Shown here: in pieces, positions 23,847-38,755 of the stretch
Layout: each line of letters opens with the position of its first letter
Position numbering within the stretch: position 1 is the stretch's first letter
NCBI GenBank assembly: GCA_001872625.1
Contig: MNXP01000021.1
Location: forward strand, 2,052 to 66,051
From: Bacteroidetes bacterium CG2_30_33_31
GTDB lineage: Bacteria; Bacteroidota; Bacteroidia; Bacteroidales; UBA1556
Length of the DNA: 64,000 nt
Direction: 5' to 3'
The notes under the pieces: generated by a model
What the model saw: only the letters and a program-made list of their open reading frames with translations
Told to the model about the DNA's origin: nothing
Databases searched by the model: none
Made by a program: the position numbers and the translations under genes

Positions 23847-26630
23847 TTAATAGTGCCCGTTTAATAGGGAATAAATAATTAAAATAACTAATGCAATTCC
23901 AGTAAACAAGAAAATGTATCCAAATGTTCTAATTAGTTTCATCCAAGAAGCAGAAAATTCTTTCTTTACCGTAACTTTATCCAATTTTCCAGCTTTTTCT
24001 AATTCGTCATATTCTTTTGGGCGGTCTTTTTTATATTCTTCTATTGGCACATGTCCTGTAAAAATAACTGTATCCATTGGAAAAGACTCAGGGCGTAGAT
24101 GTGTGTTAAAGAAATGAATTGTAAAAATAAATCCAACGGCAAGCAAAGCTTCATCACTGTGAATTATTTGAGCCACATTTATTACCCAACCTGATAGAAA
24201 CTTGGTAAAAAATTCAGGCTGCCATAAGATTAATCCCGATAAACCAATAACTGCAACTCCCCAAAATACAGCCATGTAATCGAATTTTTCCCAATAAGTC
24301 CATCGCCCGTAATATGGTCGAGGGCCTTTCCCTAAAAACCATTTAACAGTTGCAACAAAGTCTTTAATATCTTGTTTATTAAACATTAATGAATTTTTAC
24401 CGAAGATAAATGCCATAGGTTTAATTTTTTCTTTAACCATTGTTTTGATAAGCGAAGCCACATGGAAAATAAAATATCCGAATGTTATAACGGCTGCAAA
24501 ACGATGGATATTACCAGCAATACTAACTCCTCCAACTATTTTTGCTAAATTATATGCCCATTCCATGTGAGCAAATTTTAACATCATACCAGTTAATGCC
24601 AAAAGTATAAAACTTAATATTACAAATATGTGAGTGATGCGTTGGCTCTTTTTAAATCTACGGAAATATATTGCTTCGCCTTTTGGCATTGGGTGTTTTT
24701 TCTTTTTTCGCGCTTCCATAATCGATCGTGGTATCCATAAAAGTGTATGTAAGCCAAAGAATCCAAATACACCAAGTAATAATGATGTCATTGCCCAAAA
24801 TGTATAATAAAGAACTTTGTTGTCATTGTGTGTAGCATGAGTCAAATATCCTGCAAATTCAACTGTTGCACCTTCATGGCATTTTTTACACGTCTTTACA
24901 ATATTTTTTTGCCCTACACTCGATTCAAGATTAGAAATCTTTAATATTTTATGAGCGCCATGACAATCGGAGCATCGGGCAGCTTTTAAATATCCTAAGG
25001 TATAAGCTTTTCCATGGTATGTTTCCATATAAGTCTCCGATAATTTTTTATGGCAGCTTCCACATTGAAGAGTGATTTGAGTAAGAAATTTATCTTTATC
25101 AATTTCTGTAATTGTATGTGCTGTATGACAATTTGCACAAGTTGGAAATATTTTACCTTTACTGTTATTTTTTATTGAATGATCGCTATTCATGTAATCA
25201 TCATAAATGCTTTTATGACATTTTGCACAGGTAGCAGGAACATTTTTTGGATTTACAGTTGAATTTTTATCCGATTCTTTTAATATGTTGTGTGATGTAT
25301 GGCAATCAGTACAAATAGCACTCGAAAGCAATCCTTTATCTTTTAAACCTTTGCCATGTACACTTGATTTGTAATCGCTAAAAGCATTTATTTCTTTTAA
25401 ATGTGTTTTAATTGTCGCTTTTCCGTTTTTTTGATGACATTTGCCGCACATATCAGGAATTAATGCTCTGTACGTTGGTGATGTGTCGTCATATCTTGTT
25501 TTAATTTTGTGTGTTCCATGGCAATCGGTACAATAAGGAGCATTAGATTTTTTTGCAAAATATGCCTTTCCATGATCGCTGTTAATATACACATTTGAAA
25601 CTTGTTCGTGACAATTTGAACAATCAACTTTTTTGACTGTTGCACATGGTCGTACTTTATTGTTTGATATGGTAACGTCGGAATGACATTTTGTACATCC
25701 AATACTTTTATGTACAGAATTTTGAATATCCGATTTGTCAATTTTTAAAGATATTTTTTTGCCCCCTTTGGTGGTTTTAAAGGTATTATTTCCTTCGTGA
25801 CATTTTAAACAAATTTGGTTCGAAACTGTTTCCTCAATTTTCGTAATTTTTACAATATGTGATGGATGGCAATCTGAACATGCTGGAACAGAGCCTGCCT
25901 TCTTTTCCCAAAGTTCTCGCTTAATTACTTTCGTGTGTACTTTCTCTATTCGTGCATGACATTTCATGCAAGTTTTTGCAATATTTTTGCTATTTATCGA
26001 GGAATTTGGACTTGAATGAGGTAATATTAAATGATTTTCGTGGCAATCGTTACATGTTGCTGTAACAATAAGTCCACTTTTATACAAGCCTTTACCATGA
26101 ATACTTTCACTATAATGTTTTAAAATATTACTTTGAGGAATGTTATATAATCTGGCAATTGGCGAACCTTCTTTATGGCATTTCCCGCATAATATCGGAA
26201 TATTCATTTTATAAGTTCGAGATAGTGGGTTTGTCCTGCTTAAAATATCATGATTACCATGGCACTCTTTACAGCTAGGTGCATAAGGTGCATTTAATTT
26301 CAAGGCCTGTCCGTGAATGCCTTTTAAAAATTGAAATTGTGAATTTTTATGGCAACTACCGCAATCTACAAGTTTTAAATTTTCGGGATGAGGAAATTCT
26401 TTTACTGCTGCATCTTTATGGCATGAGGTACAAAGTACTTTCTTATGTACCGACTGAGAAATCTTATTATTTACATATAATGAAACAACTTTACCATGAC
26501 TTGTTTTTGACAAGGTCTCATCACTATGGCACATAAAGCAGTCATCATTCGACTGCGAAAACAAGTTTGATGGGTGAAAGGGAAATCCTACTGCCAACAA
26601 AAATAAAAATATTCTAAACTTTTTTAACAT
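23847..26630 (-). CDS. 19-heme c-type cytochrome fused to a C-terminal cytochrome b domain (CbcL-like quinol oxidoreductase)
   Basis: Signal peptide, 19 CxxCH counted by eye, then TM domain with RITH, IHR, RWTYWEKFDYMAVFWG, IIHSDEA, IHFFNTH. Confidence 0.88.
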   Translation of the reverse strand: MLKKFRIFLFLLAVGFPFHPSNLFSQSNDDCFMCHSDETLSKTSHGKVVSLYVNNKISQSVHKKVLCTSCHKDAAVKEFPHPENLKLVDCGSCHKNSQFQFLKGIHGQALKLNAPYAPSCKECHGNHDILSRTNPLSRTYKMNIPILCGKCHKEGSPIARLYNIPQSNILKHYSESIHGKGLYKSGLIVTATCNDCHENHLILPHSSPNSSINSKNIAKTCMKCHARIEKVHTKVIKRELWEKKAGSVPACSDCHPSHIVKITKIEETVSNQICLKCHEGNNTFKTTKGGKKISLKIDKSDIQNSVHKSIGCTKCHSDVTISNNKVRPCATVKKVDCSNCHEQVSNVYINSDHGKAYFAKKSNAPYCTDCHGTHKIKTRYDDTSPTYRALIPDMCGKCHQKNGKATIKTHLKEINAFSDYKSSVHGKGLKDKGLLSSAICTDCHTSHNILKESDKNSTVNPKNVPATCAKCHKSIYDDYMNSDHSIKNNSKGKIFPTCANCHTAHTITEIDKDKFLTQITLQCGSCHKKLSETYMETYHGKAYTLGYLKAARCSDCHGAHKILKISNLESSVGQKNIVKTCKKCHEGATVEFAGYLTHATHNDNKVLYYTFWAMTSLLLGVFGFFGLHTLLWIPRSIMEARKKKKHPMPKGEAIYFRRFKKSQRITHIFVILSFILLALTGMMLKFAHMEWAYNLAKIVGGVSIAGNIHRFAAVITFGYFIFHVASLIKTMVKEKIKPMAFIFGKNSLMFNKQDIKDFVATVKWFLGKGPRPYYGRWTYWEKFDYMAVFWGVAVIGLSGLILWQPEFFTKFLSGWVINVAQIIHSDEALLAVGFIFTIHFFNTHLRPESFPMDTVIFTGHVPIEEYKKDRPKEYDELEKAGKLDKVTVKKEFSASWMKLIRTFGYIFLFTGIALVILIIYSLLNGHY

Positions 26631-27466: not shown

Positions 27467-28690
27467 TTATTGAATAAATTTCATATAATAATTTGGTGAA
27501 ACTCTGTGTTCGTAACCATGACGCGAATTATCAAATTGTGCAACATTAAAAAGGTATTCTTTAAGGAAATCTGTGTAATTGATGTCATCATCATGTCCTG
27601 TATTCAGTTTTCTTCCAATTTCTGCTTTCCATGTACCATTACTCCAAGTAGCTCCGAAAGTAAGATCAGCTCTGCTGCCAGTTGGTACGACATGAATTCG
27701 CTCACAAACAATTGCGTTTAGTGCAGCATATTTAGGCCAGTATAAAGCTGCATCAGCATCGCTTACACCTGTTGTTGCATCTCCTACGCATTCACCACCA
27801 TCTATTTCAGCTTTTGTAATAAACATAGCATCAGCGAAATCAGTTGGATTTTTTTCCATCCATTTTGGACGAGATTTATCAGCAATACGGTTGTGTGAAG
27901 CTGCGGCGGTTCCAGCATCGCCATAACGACCACCATCTTCACCATTAGTTCCTGACCACGGGCCAACATAAGTATCGTCAACATATCCAACCATAGAAAA
28001 TGTGCCAGCAGTTACTTCATGAGACGCTGGATCAACTGTTAAACCTGAACCCGTAGCAGAAGTGACGGCACCTGCACGTGCAGCTTTACTATGCCATAAA
28101 TCGGCACGACCTGCTGATAACCAAGCATCATCAACTATAGCATCTCCGTTTGCATGTGGATGAGGATCTGATTCTTGTGGCCAATACATGTGGCATTTAG
28201 CCATACATCCTTTTGTATTATATGGATCGCCTGTAGTGGCACCCATTGGCCAATAGAAAGAAATTCGATCTTCTGACTGAACTGTGTTCGGTTTTGCCCA
28301 AGAACCAGAAGCAAAGGACCAGGATCCATTTCTAGTAAAACTTGCTGTTGGATCAGACCATTCTGATAAAATATAAATGTCTGTAGCTGTATAAACTGCT
28401 CTTAATTTAACAGTTATAGCGCTATTATAAGCATGGCATCCTGCGCAGTTATTAATTTTTGATGGGTCATTTGGTGGATTGCCTGTCTCACCTATTGCTA
28501 CTGTCAAGATTGGAGCATTCGCCCATATACCATCGACAACTCCATCCACAGTTGGTGCCGTAGATGCTTTAATAGCATTTAACTTGGTTAAATCGTATGA
28601 AGGTGGCGTCACAGGGGGGACGTCCTTTTTACAGCTTACTGTAAATGTTAAAATTGCTAATGCAATTAAAATAAAATTAAAATTTTTCAT
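27467..28690 (-). CDS. Lipoprotein with ethylbenzene-dehydrogenase-like (EB_dh/DOMON) heme domain plus CxxCH and CxxxCH motifs
   Basis: VSC lipobox, PTVDG..D..W, W.DPT, EDR, DLWH.KA.R, W..E..RKL.TG..DD, CAGCH and CMAKCH. Confidence 0.7.
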   Translation of the reverse strand: MKNFNFILIALAILTFTVSCKKDVPPVTPPSYDLTKLNAIKASTAPTVDGVVDGIWANAPILTVAIGETGNPPNDPSKINNCAGCHAYNSAITVKLRAVYTATDIYILSEWSDPTASFTRNGSWSFASGSWAKPNTVQSEDRISFYWPMGATTGDPYNTKGCMAKCHMYWPQESDPHPHANGDAIVDDAWLSAGRADLWHSKAARAGAVTSATGSGLTVDPASHEVTAGTFSMVGYVDDTYVGPWSGTNGEDGGRYGDAGTAAASHNRIADKSRPKWMEKNPTDFADAMFITKAEIDGGECVGDATTGVSDADAALYWPKYAALNAIVCERIHVVPTGSRADLTFGATWSNGTWKAEIGRKLNTGHDDDINYTDFLKEYLFNVAQFDNSRHGYEHRVSPNYYMKFIQ

Positions 28691-28850
28691 GTTAAAATAA
28701 AATTAATAGTTAAAAAAATTATAAAAAGATAAAATATATTTGATTTAGACTCTCTATATTTCTATGGAGGGTGAATTTCATTATTTTCATTTGTTTGTAA
28801 ATTTATTTTCATCAAATTTTCCTTTTAAAAGTATTTGTCGTTACCATGTT

Positions 28851-31800
28851 TTAAAATCTGTCTGAAAATACCTTAGACTTATAATATTTAATGCCTGCTG
28901 AAATTATCAGAATAAAGATAGAGATAACGATGATTTTTGAGTACAAGGGGATTGCAAAAGCTTCACCAGCGCCATAAGAATGCATTCCTGATAGGAAGTA
29001 ATTTACTCCGAAGAAAGTCATTAAAATACTTCCAAAGCCTAAAACAGCTCCTGTACTAACTACAAATGAGGATTTGAAGCCTGGAATATGTCTTAAATGA
29101 CCAATGAAAGTATAAACTAAAATGCTTACCAATGCCCATGTTTCTTTGGGATCCCAACCCCAATAACGACCCCAAGATTCATTGGCCCAAACAGCTCCCA
29201 AAAATGTTCCGATAGTTAAAAGGTATAAACCAATTATCTGCGCCATTTCAATAATTGAGGATAGCTCTTTTATTGTTGGGAGCAGCTTTTCTGTGTTTCT
29301 TTCGTTGGTGGAAAGTAATAATATATGAATTAGCAAGCCCATTAAAGCTATTAAAGCGAAAAAGCCATAGCTTGAAGTTATTACAGCTACATGTATAATT
29401 AGCCAATAACTTTTTAATACTGGCACCAAATTAGTAATTTCTGGATCCATCCAACTTAAACCAGATATCAATATTAGTATGGCTGCAAGAATTGCAGTAA
29501 GTGCCAAGCTGATTGTGGATCTTTTGGCGAATAAAATTCCAGCCAATACTGTTGCCCAAGCTATAAAAAGTGTTGTCTCATAGCCATTGCTCCATGGTGC
29601 ATGCCCTGAAATATACCATCTTAAACCTAAAATTGCTGTTTGGAGTATGAATAGTAGAACAATCAAACTCATTGCACTATTTATTATCCACTTTATTTTC
29701 AGCTTGTTATTAAAAAGTTTTACAAACAAAGAAATGAGAAGAACTAATCCAAATACAAGATATAGTTTTGAAGCGTATTTAAAGAAATTTACTTTGTTGT
29801 AAAATACCTCCGCATCAACTTTTGCTGCTGGTGGCAGCTTATTTCCGCCAAATTTTTTCTGATATGCGAAAATTTTATCTAATGCAATATCAGCATTTTT
29901 CCAGTCACCAGATTGTATAGCTGATTTCACACTGCCGTAATACTGGCCATATAAATCTATTATTAATGCTTTTTGTTCTTTGTTTCCATCCTGATTCATT
30001 TCTGTTGCTGCAATCCATTTTCCAGTGCTATCACCAGGTAAAGGGAAAAAATTAAATAAACTTCCAGTAGATAACATTAAACTCAAATTTACTTTTTCGT
30101 CAAGTTTTAGTATTTCTTTATCATATTTGGTTCTAAGGTCTGCTTCTTTTTGATATATCTGATCTACTTCAGTTTTAATTAAATAGAGATCATAACTGCC
30201 TGGGGGCAATATTTGATTTATAGAAACTCTGTCGGAATTAAAATTGTATTTCTTTATAATTTCACTATTGGAAATTTTGATAGTAGGAACGTTTTCCCAC
30301 AGTTCTTGATTCATCATCATTGATAGAAAAAGCTCTGTTGAGGTATAACCATCAATAGAATTTTCTCGCATTATCTTCCTGTTAATTTCTGAGGCAAAAG
30401 TACTTATTGGTTTTATCCTCCCTATCGGGTCAGCGATTAGCAAATGACCAAATCTTTCTGCATGTTTGTGGTTTATATTGTTTGCTGGTGGATTTTGTAT
30501 AGGACTATTTGGTTGAGCTTGGCTGCTAAAGGCGGTAAATGTGCCAAGTAAAAATATTACTGCTATTTTGCTGTTTCTGTGCAAAAGTTCTCTGAAATGA
30601 CTTTTTTTGGAAAATAAGGCTAAGAACATTCCAACGACCATTAAAGAATATCCTAAATAAGTTACAATGGTTCCTATTGGATCGTAATTAACCGATAGAA
30701 TTGTTCCGTTTTCATCTTCATCATAGGATGACTGAAAAAACCTGTATCCTTTGTAATTCAAGATGTTGTTCATAAAAATACTAAATTCTTTTATCTCCTT
30801 GCCAGATTCATCAACAAGAGTGATATTGCTTTTAAAAGATGATGGGCTCATGGAATTAACGTATCTTTCAATTATAAAATCATCGAGCTTTAATGCAAAA
30901 GGCAGCTTAATAATTTCTGATCCGTAGGATATTTTAAAAGAGGCATCCGAGAAATTAACTATTTCTTCATCACCAGCCAAATTTTCCGCACCGAAAACGT
31001 ATTGTTCCTTTTTTTCTTCTCCATAGGAAATATCTAATTTTAGTGCATTCAATGGGTAATTTCCCGAATGCTCAGTCATCGAAACAACTTTTATTATTGC
31101 CGATGGATAATAATTTTTAATGGCGAAGCTATTATATGCTACTTGGTATAAAATATTATTAAGTGTTTTATGAATTGAATCAGGTGCAAGTTTTTGATGT
31201 TCCATGTTAATCATATCCACCTGATAAATCATTTCTTTGCTTTTTAAATATAGGCTATCATCTTTTTCTATGAAAATAATATCGGCATTTGGATTATCAC
31301 TAAAGGAATATGTAATATTTCCAAAAACGTAATCCTCGCCTTTATTTAAAAAAATATTTTTAAATTGAAATGAAGAATCTGAAATAGAAAGTGCGATAGT
31401 TTTCTTGCCTTCGGGTGAATCTTGTGCCATTTTAGCTGCATTCAGAATAAAATCTGATTGTTTAATTTGCAAAGTTTTGCTGCCTATATTGGTCGAAAAT
31501 GCTTCCATGGCTTTTATTCCTAAGCTGCTTTTTATTGCTTGCGAATAAATAGTTGAATCTGATTTGTTAACTGTTAGAGAAGTTTTTGCCGTGGTAATAA
31601 TATTTGAAGATTCGCCTTCTCTTATGTGCATAAATCCCTCATAACTAAAATATCTGGTAATACCTGCGCCAATAATTATTACGACGAATGAAAGATGAAA
31701 TAATATCAACGACCATTTTTTGTTTGCTAATGATTTATACTTTACCAAACTACCTAATAAATTTGCGCAAAGTAGAAAAAGCAATATTTCGAACCAACGG

Positions 31801-31940
31801 GCATCGTACACTAAGTTTCGAGCAGCATCTACACCTGTATTGTTCTCTACAAATGTGGCATATCCGATGGCTATGGCAAAAATTATAAGCAATATTGCTG
31901 AAAATGCCATCGAAAAAAAAACTGAAAATAATTTCTTCAT
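28851..31940 (-). CDS. ccsA: Fused System II cytochrome c maturase CcsBA (ResB-ResC)
   Basis: FHLSF, YRFFQSSYD, WLIIHV, GAVWANESWGRYWGWDPKETW, GMHSY. Confidence 0.95.
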   Translation of the reverse strand: MKKLFSVFFSMAFSAILLIIFAIAIGYATFVENNTGVDAARNLVYDARWFEILLFLLCANLLGSLVKYKSLANKKWSLILFHLSFVVIIIGAGITRYFSYEGFMHIREGESSNIITTAKTSLTVNKSDSTIYSQAIKSSLGIKAMEAFSTNIGSKTLQIKQSDFILNAAKMAQDSPEGKKTIALSISDSSFQFKNIFLNKGEDYVFGNITYSFSDNPNADIIFIEKDDSLYLKSKEMIYQVDMINMEHQKLAPDSIHKTLNNILYQVAYNSFAIKNYYPSAIIKVVSMTEHSGNYPLNALKLDISYGEEKKEQYVFGAENLAGDEEIVNFSDASFKISYGSEIIKLPFALKLDDFIIERYVNSMSPSSFKSNITLVDESGKEIKEFSIFMNNILNYKGYRFFQSSYDEDENGTILSVNYDPIGTIVTYLGYSLMVVGMFLALFSKKSHFRELLHRNSKIAVIFLLGTFTAFSSQAQPNSPIQNPPANNINHKHAERFGHLLIADPIGRIKPISTFASEINRKIMRENSIDGYTSTELFLSMMMNQELWENVPTIKISNSEIIKKYNFNSDRVSINQILPPGSYDLYLIKTEVDQIYQKEADLRTKYDKEILKLDEKVNLSLMLSTGSLFNFFPLPGDSTGKWIAATEMNQDGNKEQKALIIDLYGQYYGSVKSAIQSGDWKNADIALDKIFAYQKKFGGNKLPPAAKVDAEVFYNKVNFFKYASKLYLVFGLVLLISLFVKLFNNKLKIKWIINSAMSLIVLLFILQTAILGLRWYISGHAPWSNGYETTLFIAWATVLAGILFAKRSTISLALTAILAAILILISGLSWMDPEITNLVPVLKSYWLIIHVAVITSSYGFFALIALMGLLIHILLLSTNERNTEKLLPTIKELSSIIEMAQIIGLYLLTIGTFLGAVWANESWGRYWGWDPKETWALVSILVYTFIGHLRHIPGFKSSFVVSTGAVLGFGSILMTFFGVNYFLSGMHSYGAGEAFAIPLYSKIIVISIFILIISAGIKYYKSKVFSDRF

Positions 31941-32167
31941 AAGTTAAGGGGTTAATTTGAAGTTATCAAAATAGATATTTCTTGACGTTATTAAATAAAA
32001 TTAAAAAATTATAAGCATTATTAAGTTTTTACTTTTTAAATTAGAGCCTAAGTCAAAACATGAATAAGACTATAAGACATTTAGCAGCTATTAGCTACAA
32101 CTTTTATATTGTTTTCAGTATCATGTATTTATTATTCTTATAGATTTAGATTCTATTTTCAAATAAT

Positions 32168-32788
32168 CTAATGATTATCTTCATGCCAGCCAGTGATAAT
32201 TGACTTAAAATTTTTAAACGGCTTTTTCCCAATTGTACAAAAATAAATATGCACAAATAGAAAAATCGAAACAATAAAACCACCAATTATATGCAGCATA
32301 TCTGTAATAAATATTCCGCTGGTTTTTTGTAATTGATTTATTACTATCTCTGGAAACAATAATCCGAAGCCTGAAATTATTAATATTGGGAGCACTAAAT
32401 ACATTATTACCACATAGGAAAATTGCTGTAGAGGGTTAAATTTATTTGACTCATTTATGGGAAAAGGAGGGGCTTCACCTTTGAAAATTCCAATTGAATA
32501 ATAATATGATTGTTTCATCAGCTTGCTGATATATCCTTTAATTCTAAAAATATAATGCTTGCTGTTTCCCGTGATAATATTTCCAACAATAAAAATAATA
32601 TAATTAAATGCTAATAGAATTCCGCAGATATTATGAATAGCAACAGCCAAATCAAACCTCATAAATGGATATAAAGGATCTGAATATTGTAAGCTTATCC
32701 CTGTAATTATTAAAAATATTATAGCTAATGCATTTATTAAATGCCAAATACGTATTAATAATGGATATAAATATATTTTTGTGGACAT
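32168..32788 (-). CDS. Di-heme cytochrome b membrane subunit (Ni_hydr_CYTB / PhsC / CbcB-like)
   Basis: RIWH, IHN, KFNPLQ, MLH...FVHIY, SIITGW, about four TM helices. Confidence 0.88.
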   Translation of the reverse strand: MSTKIYLYPLLIRIWHLINALAIIFLIITGISLQYSDPLYPFMRFDLAVAIHNICGILLAFNYIIFIVGNIITGNSKHYIFRIKGYISKLMKQSYYYSIGIFKGEAPPFPINESNKFNPLQQFSYVVIMYLVLPILIISGFGLLFPEIVINQLQKTSGIFITDMLHIIGGFIVSIFLFVHIYFCTIGKKPFKNFKSIITGWHEDNH

Positions 32789-32792
32789 GGAG

Positions 32793-33734
32793 TTATTTTT
32801 TAAGTATTATGCGTATAAAGGCATGAATAAAAATTATTAAAAGCACTAATGAGAAAATACTAATACTTATAGAATTCAAATAGAAGTTCCTATTAGCACC
32901 AATTACAAAAGAATTCTTTAGCAAAACCCCATTAAAAAATCCGAATTTATTTCTATTTTCTTTTATGTCATGCTTATATAGCGATGACATTAATAATGAA
33001 TTATCCGAATGGCATTTCACACAAAGTTTTACCGCCTTTTCTTTTCCCAAAATGCGATGTGGTACTTTCAAGCTATCATTTTGCTGAGCATGACATTCCA
33101 AACATCTAACCTTTTTAAAATGTAATTCACGGTTTGGTAGCCAACTATGAGATTTTTCATCAATGGATGCAGTGCTATCTGACAGCAAATAGAATTTATT
33201 TTCTGTGTAATTATGACAATTTAAGCACATGTGATTACTGTAATCTACAATTTTGTTAATATCAGTTTTGTTACGGGCATTCAACTCGTAATAATGCTGT
33301 TTATGGCATCTCTCACAATTAAAATCTTCGCCCATCAATTTACCATGAATGCTCTTTTTAACTTCAACTTCAATCTCTTCAAAATGAAATTTTGCAAAAG
33401 TTTCGTCACTACCATGGCAGTCGAGGCAAGTATTTTTCGCCTCTAATTTTAATTCAGCTTTGTGTGGATAAATTTCATATTCAGTTGCATGACAATCAGT
33501 ACATTGAAAACTTTTATGTACACCTTTCTTGTAAAGAGTTTTATTTATAATAAAATATGGATTCATCCTATGATGAACTTCTTTGTCAATTACCCTATTA
33601 TAGAATTTATAATAATCATTTCCATGACACTTCAAACACTTGTTATTATTTGGTATCACAGTTTGAGTGAAAGAAGTAACAACTAAAAATAAGGCTAAAA
33701 TACTTAAGCTTAAGCTTTTGTTAATTATACACAT
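32793..33734 (-). CDS. Heptaheme cytochrome c with C-terminal membrane anchor (CbcA-like)
   Basis: Seven CxxCH (CLKCH, CTDCH, CLDCH, CERCH, CLNCH, CLECH, CVKCH), VIGANR, C-terminal TM helix containing His. Confidence 0.85.
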   Translation of the reverse strand: MCIINKSLSLSILALFLVVTSFTQTVIPNNNKCLKCHGNDYYKFYNRVIDKEVHHRMNPYFIINKTLYKKGVHKSFQCTDCHATEYEIYPHKAELKLEAKNTCLDCHGSDETFAKFHFEEIEVEVKKSIHGKLMGEDFNCERCHKQHYYELNARNKTDINKIVDYSNHMCLNCHNYTENKFYLLSDSTASIDEKSHSWLPNRELHFKKVRCLECHAQQNDSLKVPHRILGKEKAVKLCVKCHSDNSLLMSSLYKHDIKENRNKFGFFNGVLLKNSFVIGANRNFYLNSISISIFSLVLLIIFIHAFIRIILKK

Positions 33735-33751: not shown

Positions 33752-33784
33752 AAAAAAAATAACTCAGAGAATTTCTCTGAGTTA
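33752..33784 (-). terminator. Intra-cluster terminator after the monoheme cytochrome c
   Basis: TAACTCAGAGA-ATT-TCTCTGAGTTA inverted repeat with a U tract on the minus strand. Confidence 0.7.
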
Positions 33785-33796
33785 CCTACTAACAAA

Positions 33797-34213
33797 CTAC
33801 TTTTTCAAAGTTCTCATATAATTTATTAAAGCCCAGCGGTCATTCTCGCTTAAAATTTTCTTTTCAAAATTAGGCATTTCGGTACGACCAACAATTGCTT
33901 CGTAATAAATTTCACCATCTGATTGTCCTTGAAATTTTGCAGATGAAAAATCACCGCAATTTGTTTTAAGTGTTTTAGATCTTGGGCTATCTCCTTTACC
34001 CAAAGCTCCGTGGCAAGTTTTGCAATATTTGCTGTAAAGTGATTTTCCAGTATCGACATTTTTACCTGGAATTGGATTTTTCATACTCTTATATTTTGCT
34101 GGAATTGTCCAGGGCGCTGCTGCTTTCTGTTGTGGTACCGAAAAAGCAAAAACAATGATTATTGCTAATGTAGAAACAGATGCAAGAACTAATTTACTAA
34201 ATTGTGTTTTCAT
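33797..34213 (-). CDS. Periplasmic monoheme cytochrome c (class I, His/Met)
   Basis: Signal sequence, NP...GK.LY..YCKTCHG, GR.EMP.F, RW.LINY.R.L. Confidence 0.9.
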   Translation of the reverse strand: MKTQFSKLVLASVSTLAIIIVFAFSVPQQKAAAPWTIPAKYKSMKNPIPGKNVDTGKSLYSKYCKTCHGALGKGDSPRSKTLKTNCGDFSSAKFQGQSDGEIYYEAIVGRTEMPNFEKKILSENDRWALINYMRTLKK

Positions 34214-34243
34214 AATGTAAATATTTAAATGATTAAAAAAAAA

Positions 34244-35164
34244 TTAAAAGCTCCAAATTCGAGTTATTACAAAACCAAATGCCATACCACCTTTAGTGAA
34301 ATCATTTACATTATGCATAATAATTTCTTGTGGCAAAATGCCAGCAGATGTTCCAATAAATATTTGGAATGCATGAGCGCTCGTAGCTATTTCCAATCCA
34401 AATGCTAAATTTGGTTTAGGAGGATTTGTAAATGGTATATTTTCTGACATAGATTTTAAATTCAATGGCATATCGTAAGTAAAAATAAATGATCCTTGAG
34501 GAGAAAATTTCATTTTGCCATTAAAATGTATCGCAATTTTATCATGTTCCATCAATGAATCAACAGCGTTGAAGTGTGTAAAACTCGCAGCGGCTTGTAG
34601 GCTTAGCCATTCATTAAATTTTCTACTAATAATGAGTTGTGAGAAGTATGCCACCCTATCCCCAAATGAATAGGTTTTTCCAAATGCTGTTTTGTTTCTC
34701 GAATCAAAAGCCATATCGCCAAATAGTGATACTGCTATTGGAATAGTATTTTTCCTAGTTTGCTCAAGAATTGTCCACTTAATATTAAAGTCGTTATACA
34801 TATTCAACTTTGAAATACCCCAACCTAATTGTAGGTTTTTCAATATCACATAGTTGATGCCCATTCTGATATTAGCTCCTGGTGCATAAATACCCCATAA
34901 ATCCCCAATACCGTTGGTGGACATAGAGCCAAAACGATGCTGAATTACATACTCCAAAGTCTTAGATGATGGAATATAGGTCGTTTGTGCATCAATTAAA
35001 TAGCCGCTGGAGAATGTTTCGCTAACGGGCTCATCTATAATAGATTCTTCTTCTATAGCTGCTGCTGTATCTACTACAACAACATTTGTATCTGTTTCAA
35101 TTTCCTGAGCTGATATTCTTGTAGAAAATATCAACAAAAAAATGGAGATTAATATTTTATTCAT
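34244..35164 (-). CDS. Outer-membrane beta-barrel protein (DUF5777-like)
   Basis: Signal peptide, QHRFG, EIATSAHAFQIF, C-terminal GFVITRIWSF. Confidence 0.75.
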   Translation of the reverse strand: MNKILISIFLLIFSTRISAQEIETDTNVVVVDTAAAIEEESIIDEPVSETFSSGYLIDAQTTYIPSSKTLEYVIQHRFGSMSTNGIGDLWGIYAPGANIRMGINYVILKNLQLGWGISKLNMYNDFNIKWTILEQTRKNTIPIAVSLFGDMAFDSRNKTAFGKTYSFGDRVAYFSQLIISRKFNEWLSLQAAASFTHFNAVDSLMEHDKIAIHFNGKMKFSPQGSFIFTYDMPLNLKSMSENIPFTNPPKPNLAFGLEIATSAHAFQIFIGTSAGILPQEIIMHNVNDFTKGGMAFGFVITRIWSF

Positions 35165-35174
35165 TTTCAGTGTA

Positions 35175-35549
35175 TTAATTGTTTTTTGCTCCTTGAGTTA
35201 TCCACATTAAAATGATTGCAGCTTGATTATCAGTGTATTTTTTCCAACTGTGTGTAGATGTAGAGGCTAAAGGATGTTGATAAAGTTTGCTTTGAGCAGG
35301 GTCAGTGAGATTCAATAAACCCATAGAAGTTATTTCGCTGTATGCTGCGCTTGCAGATAAGTCTGGCCTTGTGCTTCCAGATTTGTGGCAACTAATACAA
35401 GTGGCATCAGAAAATATAGGCACCACTTGAGTGGCAAACTTTACTGTGTCTGTGGGATTTATAATAACCCCACTTTCTTTTATATTATATTTATAAGTGC
35501 AACTTCCAAAGAATAGCATTACAAATATTATCAAAAAAATTTTTTTCAT
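35175..35549 (-). CDS. Monoheme cytochrome c lipoprotein
   Basis: FGSC lipobox, V.F...V.PIF...CISCH, WITQGAKNN. Confidence 0.8.
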   Translation of the reverse strand: MKKIFLIIFVMLFFGSCTYKYNIKESGVIINPTDTVKFATQVVPIFSDATCISCHKSGSTRPDLSASAAYSEITSMGLLNLTDPAQSKLYQHPLASTSTHSWKKYTDNQAAIILMWITQGAKNN

Positions 35550-35696: not shown

Positions 35697-36725
35697 TTAT
35701 TTCTTAGCTGCTGCTATAGAATTTTCAAGAAGCTTTTTAGCATAGTTGAAATTATGTACACCTTTACTTTTATCTTCCATAACAAATTGATAATTGTATA
35801 TAATTCCAGCATTGTCATTAGTATAAGTGCCAGTTACAACATTACCAGAAGCAGTCATATATCCTTTGGTTACTAAAATTGTTTTTAGGCTATCCAATAA
35901 ATTTTGAGTTGTAGCTTGAGTGGCAATAATTTTATTCTTCAAGGAAGTTGCATCTGCATGGCAAGAAGTGCATCCTGCTGTATTTACTGTACCAGATGTT
36001 CCATACCTCATGCCTAATTGATGACCACCAGCTTGATTACCATAAGCTTTAGCCATGTGACATTGAACGCATGAATTGCTAACCATGGTAGTATGAGATG
36101 AATTTATATAACCTGTTCCTAATTCATATCCACCAGTACCATTAAATAAGTTTCCCTGAGGGCCATGATGAGTTCCATAACGAAAGCTCGTAATTGTAAT
36201 AGTTGCAGACCCTTGAGATAAATCCCACATTGGATCAGGTTTTCTAATCTGATGACAATTAATACATAAATTAGCTTTTCCTTGATCGCTTGTAATTCCA
36301 TTTACTTTGAAAACTACAGGAGTTGTTGCTGTCAAAGCCCAATCATCTTGCGTGTAAGTTGTGTGAATTTTGTGGCATGTGTAGCAATTTTGAGGATTTG
36401 GATTGCTAATCACGCTTGCACATACTTCAGCTCCAGTTTTGAGAACTTCTAAAAAACCTTGGCTTGTATGACAAGGTGCACAATCAACGGCATTTCTTGC
36501 ATAATTTCCATTTACTGCATGCCCAGAAGCTGCCCATTGATTGCTTTTTTCGAAAATATTCTGTGAATTGTCGTGACATTTGATACAATCCACTGTCCCA
36601 TTAGTTCCATTGGTACCATTAGTACCGTTGATGCCTGCAGGACCTTGAGGTCCCTCTTTAGTGCAGGATGCTATTATTAGTGTACTTAGAACTAATAATG
36701 CTGTAATTTTTTGTAATGATTTCAC
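35697..36725 (-). CDS. Hexaheme c-type cytochrome lipoprotein with collagen-like Gly-X-Y linker
   Basis: GTG start, IIASC lipobox, GPQGPAGINGTNGTNGTNG, six CxxCH, C-terminal helical region with GVHN..YA..LL..S. Confidence 0.88.
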   Translation of the reverse strand: MKSLQKITALLVLSTLIIASCTKEGPQGPAGINGTNGTNGTNGTVDCIKCHDNSQNIFEKSNQWAASGHAVNGNYARNAVDCAPCHTSQGFLEVLKTGAEVCASVISNPNPQNCYTCHKIHTTYTQDDWALTATTPVVFKVNGITSDQGKANLCINCHQIRKPDPMWDLSQGSATITITSFRYGTHHGPQGNLFNGTGGYELGTGYINSSHTTMVSNSCVQCHMAKAYGNQAGGHQLGMRYGTSGTVNTAGCTSCHADATSLKNKIIATQATTQNLLDSLKTILVTKGYMTASGNVVTGTYTNDNAGIIYNYQFVMEDKSKGVHNFNYAKKLLENSIAAAKK

Positions 36726-36764
36726 TTGTATTTATATTTAATTTATAAATTGTTAATTAGATAA

Positions 36765-36772
36765 CAAAATTA
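36765..36772 (-). promoter_or_regulatory. Bacteroidota -7 element of the cytochrome operon
   Basis: TAATTTTG on the minus strand. Confidence 0.6.
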
Positions 36773-36793
36773 TTTTTTGTTTTGCATCTAACA

Positions 36794-36828
36794 ATGATAT
36801 AAATCAAAGCAAAATTGATATATATCAA
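36794..36828. promoter_or_regulatory. Tandem FNR/Crp boxes
   Basis: ATGAT-ATAA-ATCAA (36794-36807) and perfect TTGAT-ATAT-ATCAA (36815-36828), 21 bp apart. Confidence 0.8.
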
Positions 36829-36843
36829 CAATGTGAAAAAATG

Positions 36844-37545
36844 TTAATTATATTGACTTAACTTCTTGAGTTCATTTAAGTTATGTATTTCAAAATCATC
36901 TCCCTTAATTGAAATAATTTTATCTTCTTTATAGCTTTTCAGGATACGAATCATGCACTCTTTAGATAAGGCACAAAAATCTGCCAAGTCTTGTCTCTTT
37001 AATGTTGTAGTGAATTTATTACTCTTATATATAATTGTAGAAAGATAAATTATCATATCGGCAACTCTTGCATACATTGTCTTAGAGGTTAAATCGATGG
37101 TTCTATTTTTAGATTTAATGGCAAGTTGGTTTAATCTTTTTAATAAGGAAAGACTGAATTTAATGTTTGTTTCCAATACCTGTTTAAATGAATTTACTTC
37201 AAGTAAACATACCTTAATGTCTGTTATTGCTTGGAAGGATGAATGATGAATTTCATCTACATAAAGGCCTGTAATTCCAAAAATATCTCCTGGCTGACTT
37301 ATTCCAATAAGTAAGGTTTTGCCTTGGTGAGCTTCCGCAGTGATTTTTACAAACCCTTCTCTTAAGCAAGCTATATGTGTAATTGCAGTAGATTGTTTGA
37401 AAATAGTTTCACCTGCTTTAAACTCAACTTCGCGTCTATGATAAAAAAGTATTTCTTTATTTTCTTTAGATAAATCGTTATATAGCAATGGCTTAACGGG
37501 GCAGCAGCATTCATTGCAATTTTCGTATTGAGCACAGTCAAACAT
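36844..37545 (-). CDS. Crp/Fnr-family regulator with N-terminal Cys cluster
   Basis: MFDCAQYENCNECCC, cNMP-like domain with central VC, HTH RQDLADFCALSKECMIR. Start ATG at 37545. Confidence 0.9.
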   Translation of the reverse strand: MFDCAQYENCNECCCPVKPLLYNDLSKENKEILFYHRREVEFKAGETIFKQSTAITHIACLREGFVKITAEAHQGKTLLIGISQPGDIFGITGLYVDEIHHSSFQAITDIKVCLLEVNSFKQVLETNIKFSLSLLKRLNQLAIKSKNRTIDLTSKTMYARVADMIIYLSTIIYKSNKFTTTLKRQDLADFCALSKECMIRILKSYKEDKIISIKGDDFEIHNLNELKKLSQYN

Positions 37546-37681
37546 ATTATATAATTTTATCTTCCAGTTTATTATTGAGATTGCCAACAGACAAATAAAG
37601 CATTATTTTCCTAAATATGCAATATATTATTCAGATTCAAAAATACATTAATTTTTCTGTAGTCTAAAGAATTTTTTATTT

Positions 37682-38191
37682 TTATTTTTTTGTTTTATTA
37701 TACTGGTCATAAGTCATTGTTTTGTATTTATTCTTTGCTATATAAGAAAGATATTGCATCCATCTATCTTTTGGTTGGTAACCTTTCACAATAGTAATAC
37801 CCTTAGACTTTTCATCCATAAAAACATAGCTTGGATAGCTCAAATTTCCTTGTAAAAGTATTCGAGCAAAATCATGTACACTTCTTGCTTTGCCATAGTT
37901 TTTATTTGTAAACCTTTGTCCAGCAATAAATATAGTATCGCCACCTTCGGCATTAAATTTTACGCAATAGAAATTTTGGTTCATATATTTTACAACTGCA
38001 GGATTGGTAAATGTGCTTGCATCCATTTTTTTACACCATCCGCACCATTCAGTATAAACATCAACTATAATTTTTTTTGGTTTAGTACGTTGCAAATCAA
38101 TAGCTTGTTGAAATGTGTACCACTTTACGACTTCGGTATTATTTGAAGGCATAAAGTTTAAACTTAATAATAATAAAATCAAGATATTCAT
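37682..38191 (-). CDS. Exported thioredoxin-fold protein (DUF255/SoxW-like)
   Basis: DVYTEWCGWCKKMD, SYPS. The ATG at 38191 is preferred because the upstream extension overlaps the tpx terminator. Confidence 0.85.
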   Translation of the reverse strand: MNILILLLLSLNFMPSNNTEVVKWYTFQQAIDLQRTKPKKIIVDVYTEWCGWCKKMDASTFTNPAVVKYMNQNFYCVKFNAEGGDTIFIAGQRFTNKNYGKARSVHDFARILLQGNLSYPSYVFMDEKSKGITIVKGYQPKDRWMQYLSYIAKNKYKTMTYDQYNKTKK

Positions 38192-38203
38192 AACTACAAA
38201 AGT

Positions 38204-38239
38204 AAAAAAAAGCTGACTCAATTTGAGCCAGCTTTTTTT
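38204..38239 (-). terminator. Terminator after tpx
   Basis: AAAAAAAGCTGaCTCA-ATT-TGAGcCAGCTTTTTTT. Confidence 0.75.
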
Positions 38240-38254
38240 AAATAGTTTAGAAAT

Positions 38255-38755
38255 TTATTTAATAACGCTTAAAGCTTTTTCATAATTGGGCTCATCAACA
38301 ATTTCGGCTACTTGTTCAGTGTAAATAACTTTTCCTGTTTCATCAACTATAACTACAGCGCGACTTTCCAGACCAGCAAGTGGTCCATTTGTAATTTCCA
38401 CAGCATAGTCTCTACCAAAAGCCCCAGATCTAAAATCAGAAAGTGTATGTACGTTATCGAGACCTTCAGCCCCACAAAAACGCGCTTGAGCAAAAGGTAA
38501 ATCCTTGGAGATACAAAGTACAACTGTATTTTTTAATTTCGATGCCTCTTGGTTAAATCTGCGCACTGATGCAGCGCAGGTGCCAGTATCCAAGCTTGGG
38601 AAAATATTTAAAATTATCTTTTGTCCTTTATAATCTGCCAATGATTTAACAGATAAGTCATTCGCAACGAGTTTAAAATCAGCTGCTTTTGAGCCTATTT
38701 TAGGAAGATTTCCTAAGGTGTTAATTTTATTTCCTTTTAATGTTATTTCTGCCAT
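38255..38755 (-). CDS. tpx: Thiol peroxidase Tpx
   Basis: FPSLDTGTCA, DLPFAQARFCG. Confidence 0.96.
   Translation of the reverse strand: MAEITLKGNKINTLGNLPKIGSKAADFKLVANDLSVKSLADYKGQKIILNIFPSLDTGTCAASVRRFNQEASKLKNTVVLCISKDLPFAQARFCGAEGLDNVHTLSDFRSGAFGRDYAVEITNGPLAGLESRAVVIVDETGKVIYTEQVAEIVDEPNYEKALSVIK

Follow-up and report, generated by a model that had tools for sequence, protein, structure and literature searches.

The oxygen-responsive regulator FNR, the FNR box and FNR promoters with tandem sites are textbook subjects. At the tandem-site promoters yfiD, ndh and nrdD of E. coli, two dimers bind at whole-turn spacing, and the upstream dimer, depending on its position, adds activation, dampens it or represses transcription. 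Here, we describe a locus from the Bacteroidales genome Bacteroidetes bacterium CG2_30_33_31 in which two FNR-type boxes are located between the gene of a cysteine-bearing Crp/Fnr-family regulator and the first gene of a multihaem cytochrome operon. The locus lies on contig MNXP01000021.1 in an analysed stretch of 64,000 nucleotides, called the window in the following, to which positions refer unless another contig is named; the DNA sequencing runs that contain the window carry labels of groundwater or aquifer metagenomes. Judged by sequence comparison, the two boxes are very probably the operator sites of the adjacent FNR-like regulator. An earlier note on the window had proposed that an oxygen-sensing switch is connected here to a promoter of the Bacteroidota type.

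In the literature searched, oxygen-responsive FNR is described for Proteobacteria and Firmicutes, and neither an FNR-box regulon nor a cysteine-bearing FNR-like sensor of Bacteroidota was found; the supplementary tables of PMC8510549 and PMC3590769, which lay outside the search, might list homologues. Reports on the TTGAT/ATCAA box dealt with rhizobia, proteobacterial regulon networks and green sulfur bacteria, and none was found on a box in Bacteroidota. Crp/Fnr homologues of Bacteroidota and Ignavibacteria were classed as MalR-like carbon sensors in a metagenomic study (PMC8510549). Ligand set and ligand position are known to vary within the family: rhizobial FnrN has four cysteines and FixK none (PMC3590769), while the sensor of Bacillus subtilis Fnr is placed at the C-terminus (PMC8510549). 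FnrN, FixK and Bacillus Fnr are without the patterns C-x2-C-C-C plus C113 or C-x2-C/H-x2-C/C113 found in the regulator described here and its homologues, and none of the three comes from Bacteroidota. The best solved relative by sequence (E-value 7e-33) is CrpPg (PG0396, structure 2GAU) from Porphyromonas gingivalis, a member of the same order. It is described as a Crp/Fnr protein with unknown ligand and as a global regulator independent of cyclic adenosine monophosphate (cAMP) (PMC12040651); the retrieved passages of that article report neither an iron-sulfur (Fe-S) cluster nor an FNR box for it.

The regulator, the cytochrome gene and all genes around them are encoded on the minus strand (Table 1). 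The regulator starts at an ATG, and a TTG further upstream at 37587 is not the start codon, since the homologues begin at the same methionine as the one encoded by the ATG. The spacer between regulator and cytochrome gene comprises 118 bp (36726-36843) of intergenic DNA with a GC content of about 30%, in which pattern matching detected no terminator-like hairpin. Read towards the cytochrome gene, the spacer contains a perfect palindrome TTGAT-N4-ATCAA, a gap of seven bases, a second box with one mismatch whose centre is 21 bp away from that of the first, and the octamer TAATTTTG, a perfect match to the Bacteroidota sigma-A element TAnnTTTG that is separated by 39 bases from the GTG of the cytochrome gene. 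All of these elements had been read correctly in the earlier note. The element TAnnTTTG was placed at -12 to -5 in a transcriptome study of Flavobacterium psychrophilum (PMC9723704). Since it is taken to span the same positions here, transcription is predicted to start near 36760 on the minus strand, which also yields the predicted box centres given in Table 1. A TTG that may act as -33 element overlaps the proximal box by one base and is located 19 nt upstream of the -7 element, the optimal spacing between the two elements. For the -33 consensus of Bacteroidota promoters we refer to PMC7366714.

One explanation to be weighed is that AT-rich intergenic DNA has produced the palindromic boxes by chance. 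The composition of the spacer and the box counts of the window agree with it: one perfect box was found where 0.49 were expected (38 of 100 shuffles contained at least one), and 16 boxes with at most one mismatch where 10.1 were expected (7 of 100 shuffles reached 16), neither count being significant. A chance origin is nevertheless contradicted, and excluded, by the roughly 12-fold enrichment of boxes upstream of orthologous genes (about 95-fold for perfect boxes), by the score of the distal box, the highest in the genome, by the rigid spacing to the -7-like element and by the conserved footprint. For the enrichment, an alignment of 12 orthologous hexahaem proteins was used to retrieve 528 relatives, from which 80 loci were kept, chosen by the cytochrome gene alone. 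All 80 loci belong to metagenome-assembled genomes, labelled as Bacteroidales, Lentimicrobiaceae, Saprospiraceae/Lewinellaceae, Marinimicrobia and 'Chlorobiota'. In the 300 bp preceding the cytochrome gene, 47 of the 78 loci whose upstream DNA is long enough carry a box with no more than one mismatch, and in 18 a perfect box occurs. These 23.7 kb contained 57 boxes, compared with a mean of 4.8 and a maximum of 11 in 200 dinucleotide shuffles, and 19 of the 57 were perfect where 0.2 were expected. Outside these upstream regions, the loci comprise 428 kb with 49 boxes, a single one of them perfect. The earlier note had suggested conservation of the boxes upstream of orthologous hexahaem genes as a check and would have given up the proposal if they were no commoner than AT-rich background; although the window counts do not rise significantly above that background, the orthologous upstream regions clearly do.

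The association also appears when loci are selected by the regulator. Among 301 genomes of the same order, homologues with an E-value of at most 1e-20 were found in 225, and the best 29 loci from other genomes were examined. A box with at most one mismatch occurred within 400 bp of the regulator gene in 21 of these 29 loci, and a perfect one in seven. The neighbouring genes mostly encode the same hexahaem lipoprotein with MtrC/MtrF domain as in the window, or a small lipoprotein together with a DUF5777 barrel. Conversely, 43 of the 80 cytochrome-selected loci encode a regulator homologue no further than 2.5 kb upstream of the cytochrome gene. Its orientation is divergent in 30 of them and co-directional, as in the window, in 13. 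Both regulator and box are present in 33 loci, the regulator only in 10, the box only in 15 and neither in 22. Loci without a box belong mainly to Saprospiraceae, Lewinellaceae and Marinimicrobia. When the spacer was aligned with those of two related loci, L032 and L033, whose regulators are about 47% identical to the one described here, both boxes and the -7 element (TACTTTTG there) were found to be kept while the flanks diverge. The boxes are real, conserved, and linked to regulator and promoter. From the sequence comparisons we are highly confident that they represent genuine Crp/Fnr-type operators of the cytochrome promoter.

The same alignment shows a further short sequence, TTAACAAT, in the predicted 5' leader (36749-36756, minus strand), which is kept at the aligned position in L032 and L033.

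A weight matrix was built from 48 orthologous promoter sites, the present genome being excluded (consensus TATTGATATATATCAATA). With 22.3 bits the distal box is the best matrix site in the 2.87 Mb of the genome (33% GC), followed by a site of 18.6 bits in coding sequence; the proximal box, with 15.2 bits, ranks 7th of the 65 sites with at least 11 bits and 3rd among the intergenic ones. The genome contains 11 perfect boxes, three of which are intergenic according to crude gene calls. The two intergenic ones outside the cytochrome promoter are positioned before purH and between rlmD and a hybrid kinase, names that were read from the translations. A wider regulon did not emerge from the genome-wide matrix scan. 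The other intergenic matches precede an unknown 414-aa gene and genes for a pyridoxal phosphate enzyme, arginine deiminase, an ABC ATPase, a PspC protein and citrate synthase, and no good-scoring site elsewhere in the genome has a -7 element 19-24 nt downstream, the class II distance. In the present genome the regulator appears to be a local switch for a single operon, and the six matches, which stand before unrelated genes, are not claimed as regulon targets. Between the CcsBA and EB_dh genes, a further box with one mismatch (28802-28815) stays below 8 bits and is regarded as a chance match.

Arginine deiminase operons of other bacteria are under FNR-type control. In the present genome, a box of 13.4 bits (AAATGATTTAAATCAAAT) is located at about 4990-5003 of contig C9, outside the window, 22 bp before the called start of the arginine deiminase gene; it is too weak to be claimed as a target.

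The genome encodes five proteins with an HTH_Crp_2 domain, which raises the alternative that another Crp/Fnr paralogue binds the boxes and that the adjacent regulator has a different or additional target. The only other homologue of the regulator detected by tblastn is encoded on contig C6 (72186-72863, outside the window). This paralogue combines an N-terminal C-x2-C with the recognition helix E-x2-I-R, lacks the central cysteine and might recognise similar boxes; moreover, 15 orthologous loci have a box without a regulator gene within 2.5 kb. On the other hand, it is only 24% identical to the adjacent regulator, no high-scoring intergenic box was found near its gene, and in 43 of the 80 loci the regulator found in synteny is of the type of the adjacent one and not of the contig C6 type. 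We regard this alternative as very improbable.

In the orthologous promoters the boxes recur as phased arrays. Each of the 48 box-bearing loci was anchored on its best box, and the match to the consensus was scored towards the gene. In this direction the match has maxima at distances of 21 and 43 bp from the main box, with at least 7 of 10 consensus positions matched in 13 of the 48 loci at +21 and in 10 of the 48 at +43. In the consensus of the largest class a right half-site appears every 22 bp (ATCAA, aTC, TCA). The 21-bp pair of the window is one instance of this recurring array of two or three sites, in which the best-matching site is the one furthest from the gene. In the class with 84.5 bp between main box and -7-like element (L092, L099, L102, L104 and others), the second and third boxes, 22 bp apart, keep their right half-sites only (aTC, TCA).

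The strict element TAnnTTTG at a fixed distance from the box is not conserved across the orthologous loci, with L033 as sole match. In its relaxed form TAnnnTTG, usually TAATATTG, TATTATTG or TAATCTTG and taken nearest to the gene if several were present, the element occurs between box and gene in 44 of the 48 anchored loci, at distances that fall into sharp classes. Measured from the centre of the main box to the first T of TAnnnTTG, the spacing is 84.5 bp in 17 loci (14 sequence groups), 81.5-83.5 bp in eight, 87.5-88.5 bp in three, 104.5-106.5 bp in 13 (11 sequence groups), 62.5 bp in one and 50.5 bp in two, namely L032 and L033; in the window, on this measure, the distal box is 49.5 bp and the proximal box 28.5 bp away from the element. 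The predicted box centres are -41.5 and -62.5 in L032 and L033, whereas those of the majority class are about -96.5, -74.5 and -52.5; in the class that follows, the sites are shifted one 21-bp step away from the gene. In most orthologous promoters the main box is predicted near -96.5 or -117.5, with the nearest weak copy at about -52.5. Across the classes, the predicted positions differ by roughly whole helical turns. The proposal of the earlier note that the proximal box is centred near -41, as in class II promoters, agrees with the predicted -40.5 here and -41.5 in L032 and L033, but not with the nearest site of most relatives; a class II-like geometry is thus predicted within this small clade and is not a general rule. 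In contrast, the broader idea that the boxes are connected to a Bacteroidota-type promoter of the hexahaem gene and to the adjacent Crp/Fnr regulator is borne out by conservation, rigid spacing and synteny.

The geometry of the promoter bears on the direction of control. The regulator might bind the boxes and act as a repressor, with tandem dimers that cover the -33 region here or block polymerase contacts from upstream in the relatives. In that case the cytochromes would be produced only while the regulator is inactive. Such a role would fit the one-base overlap of the proximal box with the putative -33 TTG next to a perfect -7 consensus, and the two outer sites of most relatives near -96.5 and -52.5, which are 44 bp apart and resemble the tandem FNR sites that repress ndh in E. 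coli. We consider repression distinctly unlikely, since the -7-like element of the majority class is imperfect (TAATATTG or TAATCTTG) and its -33 element weak, the usual mark of activator-dependent promoters. In addition, the predicted sites (-40.5, -52.5, -61.5, -74.5 and -96.5) are about whole helical turns apart, as expected for activation from one face of the helix, and cytochrome operons of this kind are usually switched on by anaerobic regulators.

The regulator has the architecture of the Crp/Fnr family, with a beta-roll sensor, a dimerisation helix and a C-terminal helix-turn-helix, as judged by Pfam (PF00027, cNMP-binding, 3e-16; PF13545, HTH_Crp_2, 9.7e-09), the layout of the AlphaFold2 model and Foldseek. 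The model has a mean predicted local distance difference test (pLDDT) score of 90.7. In Foldseek it reaches a template modelling score of 0.80 to holo-FNR (Aliivibrio fischeri, 5E44 and others) and of 0.84/0.89 to CrpPg, which is also the best solved relative in this respect; the alignment with CrpPg starts after the N-terminal cysteine segment, and CrpPg has leucine at the place of C113. Cysteines are located at positions 4, 10, 13, 14, 15, 60, 113, 191 and 197, accompanied by H57, so that the N-terminal pattern C4-x5-C10-x2-C13-C14-C15 and the central cysteine (C113) read by the earlier note are both present. Aligned by hhalign with E. coli FNR (K-12 record; probability 98.75 over residues 8-230), C10, C13 and C113 match the FNR residues C20, C23 and C122, P19 stands opposite C29, and E196, I199 and R200 of the recognition helix E196-x2-I199-R200 correspond to E209, S212 and R213. 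In a MAFFT alignment that includes E. coli FNR, the columns of C20, C23, C122 and R213 are invariant in all 14 sequences. Among the NCBIfam models the Fnr model scores best; with the CRP model the regulator reaches 45.2 bits against a cut-off of 266, which places it outside the curated cAMP-binding CRPs, and the box associated with it is of the TTGAT type and not of the TGTGA type of CRP. The resemblance of the cysteine pattern to FNR suggested by the earlier note extends to the positions of C20, C23 and C122, but not to C29, to the recognition-helix serine or to a score above the cut-off of the Fnr model.

Conservation of the cysteines is graded. In the close clade, which comprises only ten proteins with at least 49% identity in a large protein collection, C10, C13, C15 and C113 are kept. 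Among 30 order-wide homologues, including the present regulator, cysteine occurs at the positions of C10 in 29, C15 in 29, C113 in 30 and C60 in 20; the N-terminus carries a plain C-x2-C in most of them, and C-x2-C-C-C only here and in L002 and L003. In the 43 syntenic regulators, the counts are 36 for C10, 39 for C15, 40 for C113, 33 for C60 and 41 for H57, and in the recognition helix 41 for E196, 39 for I199 and 42 for R200.

These patterns are also relevant for the signal. With the same wiring, the regulator could respond to another signal through a thiol-disulfide switch, haem, a [2Fe-2S] cluster or another metal and thus sense general redox state, NO or the availability of a metal instead of oxygen by means of a [4Fe-4S] cluster. 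The match to the FNR ligand positions is limited to three, with C29 absent, and the set that is constant in the wider family consists of C-x2-C, H57, C60 (33 of 43) and C113. According to the model, C60 and C113 are on strands predicted at 57-63 and 110-116, which, going by the known Crp fold, would be neighbours in the jelly roll, so that a disulfide between them is conceivable. HcpR and PgRsp, Crp/Fnr proteins of P. gingivalis and hence of the same order, bind haem (PMC12040651), and genes for a thiol peroxidase and a thioredoxin-like protein are located just upstream of the regulator gene. Against such a switch, the four cysteines kept in the close clade (C10, C13, C15 and C113) are the number required for a cubane cluster, the three matched positions are exactly FNR ligand positions, and the target is a respiratory cytochrome operon, which is typical for anaerobic regulators. 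Taking both sides together, we judge a different signal to be unlikely for the present regulator.

The first target gene encodes a hexahaem lipoprotein with the Pfam domains Mtrc-MtrF_II-IV_dom and Cytochrome_C7, whose six haem motifs are invariant in the alignment of the 12 orthologues. The intergenic gaps between the genes of the hexahaem protein, the one-haem lipoprotein, the DUF5777 barrel and the one-haem cytochrome c are 147, 10 and 30 bp. A terminator-like hairpin after the last of them may be the end of the first transcription unit, as a terminator or as an attenuator that splits the cluster. The gene content suggests a quinol-linked chain that reaches the outer membrane, and in appearance the operon resembles a chain for electron export or for periplasmic respiration. 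DUF5777 was not mentioned in the literature searched, nor did this literature contain relevant work on FNR of Bacteroidetes together with extracellular electron transfer by multihaem outer-membrane proteins.

Table 1 Features of the regulator/cytochrome locus in the 64,000-nucleotide window
Feature	Position	Strand	Description
Regulator ORF (open reading frame), Crp/Fnr family	37545..36844	-	233 aa from ATG
Distal box TTGATATATATCAA	36815..36828		perfect palindrome TTGAT-N4-ATCAA; centre 36821.5; predicted -61.5
Proximal box, gene strand TTGATTTATATCAT, forward strand ATGATATAAATCAA	36794..36807		one mismatch; centre 36800.5; predicted -40.5
Putative -33 element TTG	36792..36794	-	predicted -34 to -32; read from the sequence, role putative
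-7 element TAATTTTG	36772..36765	-	perfect Bacteroidota sigma-A TAnnTTTG
Hexahaem c-type cytochrome lipoprotein, first target gene	36725..35697	-	342 aa, GTG start, lipoprotein signal, six CxxCH
Three downstream genes	35549..33797	-	124-aa one-haem lipoprotein, 306-aa DUF5777 beta-barrel, 138-aa one-haem cytochrome c
Terminator-like hairpin	33757..33787	-	14 pairs then T run; pattern match
Further cluster genes	33734..28851	-	313-aa seven-haem membrane-anchored cytochrome, 206-aa PhsC-like cytochrome b, 1029-aa ResB-CcsA haem-attachment fusion

Several features of the neighbourhood deserve mention in their own right. The hexahaem lipoprotein carries seven Gly-X-Y triplets directly after the lipobox cysteine (GPQ GPA GIN GTN GTN GTN GTV; 36591-36653, minus strand), and each of the 12 aligned orthologues has a Gly-X-Y run, varying in length, in this position; the run resembles a stalk of the collagen type. 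Beyond the cluster, a lipoprotein of 407 aa with an EB_dh (ethylbenzene-dehydrogenase-type) domain, one CxxCH and one CxxxCH is encoded at 27467-28690 (minus strand); an EB_dh protein also adjoins the regulator/cytochrome pair in locus L024. Another 836 bp further on, a gene for a protein of 927 aa that joins 19 CxxCH motifs to a cytochrome b membrane domain (Ni_hydr_CYTB) at its C-terminus follows at 23847-26630 (minus strand). No good box was found before this gene, the sole box nearby being inside its coding sequence (25089-25102, 12.8 bits). On the other side of the regulator, the genes for the secreted thioredoxin-like protein and the thiol peroxidase (Redoxin/Tpx-type) are located at 37682-38755 on the same strand, with a terminator-like hairpin at 38205-38239 after the thiol peroxidase gene.

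From these comparisons we infer that it is the adjacent regulator that binds the boxes, that it carries an Fe-S cluster, that oxygen is the signal and that the operon is activated rather than repressed. Each box would be occupied by one regulator dimer, and the two dimers, spaced by 21 bp, would contact one and the same face of the DNA, with their centres about 40.5 and 61.5 bp before the predicted transcription start. The promoter would be of the Bacteroidota sigma-A type, TTG-N19-TAATTTTG, and read into the operon of hexahaem cytochrome, one-haem lipoprotein and DUF5777 barrel. The regulator most likely holds a cysteine-bound Fe-S cluster with C10, C13 and C113 as candidate ligands; because C29 has no counterpart, C14, C15 or C60 would be needed as the fourth. 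Similar to FNR, it would bind DNA and activate only without oxygen, and the bound dimers would recruit the sigma-A polymerase, so that the operon is switched on under anoxia. The appearance of the operon as an electron-export or periplasmic respiratory chain is the reason to expect that it is made only under anoxia. As a whole, this chain from DNA binding by the regulator with its Fe-S cluster intact to activation of the operon under anoxia seems to us just probable.

A number of observations weigh against this chain. The FNR residue C29 (C-x2-C-x5-C) has no counterpart, Pro19 being aligned there, and C14, C15 and C60 are not equivalent in position. The recognition helix has isoleucine in place of S212 of FNR and does not read E-x2-S-R, and the NCBIfam Fnr model NF008365 gives 52.6 bits against a cut-off of 228 and covers residues 36-231 only. 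Confidence in the model is low over the N-terminal cysteine segment, where pLDDT is 51 for the first ten residues and 71 for residues 11-20. Foldseek does not separate FNR from cAMP-binding CRPs, its top matches being all Crp/Fnr proteins including mycobacterial CRP, and the closest solved relative by sequence, the P. gingivalis Crp (2GAU), is cysteine-less and not an FNR. Since only C-x2-C and C113 are near-universal in the wider family, a thiol switch or another cofactor is equally possible from the sequence. At the promoter, a perfect -7 consensus is accompanied by a -33 TTG, which means that an activator may not be needed, and the predicted sites of most relatives near -96.5, -74.5 and -52.5 recall the two-site repression of ndh. 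Finally, 31 of the 78 orthologous loci are without a box at up to one mismatch, 10 loci have a regulator without box and 15 a box without regulator within 2.5 kb, and the genomes compared are related and cannot be counted as independent; joining upstream regions with at least 75% identity leaves 38 groups among the 48 box-bearing loci.

Compared with FNR, an oxygen sensor with a [4Fe-4S] cluster, the regulator shares the Crp/Fnr fold, the cysteines at the positions of C20, C23 and C122, the glutamate and arginine of the recognition helix and, by comparative inference, the consensus of the associated box TTGAT-N4-ATCAA, and the predicted box centres, -40.5 and -61.5, would nearly coincide with the sites of classical class II and class I promoters. 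In contrast to FNR, it is only about 20% identical to that protein, has the adjacent C14/C15 and the beta-roll C60 instead of C29 and isoleucine instead of S212, would act on a Bacteroidota -33/-7 promoter, has relatives in which the sites, two or three in phase, are placed far upstream, and appears to serve a single operon locally instead of being global. The E. coli tandem-site promoters differ in polymerase and promoter type, and the arrangement described here is fixed across many genera and comprises up to three sites. New in comparison with the described systems are the phylum, the ligand set, the recognition helix, the coupling to the -33/-7 promoter that is exact to the base pair, the phased arrays and the target operon.

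We speculate that the regulators form a distinct FNR-like lineage throughout the Bacteroidota with a different ligand set (C-x2-C, His57/Cys60, Cys113), which binds cooperatively to phased arrays of two to three boxes 21-22 bp apart at base-pair-exact distances from the -7 element and serves as master switch of an undescribed outer-membrane cytochrome/DUF5777 conduit in anaerobic Bacteroidales, Lentimicrobiaceae and relatives. This extension is tentative and, on the present comparisons, rather doubtful; if true, it would define a control point for extracellular respiration in a major group of sediment and aquifer bacteria.

The regulator, the operator array and the phylum-specific promoter are conserved together and form a testable unit, which allows examining how a Crp/Fnr activator contacts the unusual RNA polymerase of Bacteroidota. 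The switch precedes an unstudied multihaem cytochrome/DUF5777 operon that may move electrons to the cell surface in Bacteroidales of groundwater and sediment, and knowing it gives a way to induce and study this operon. We consider the switch a good candidate for how uncultured Bacteroidales turn an electron-export chain on and off with oxygen or redox state.

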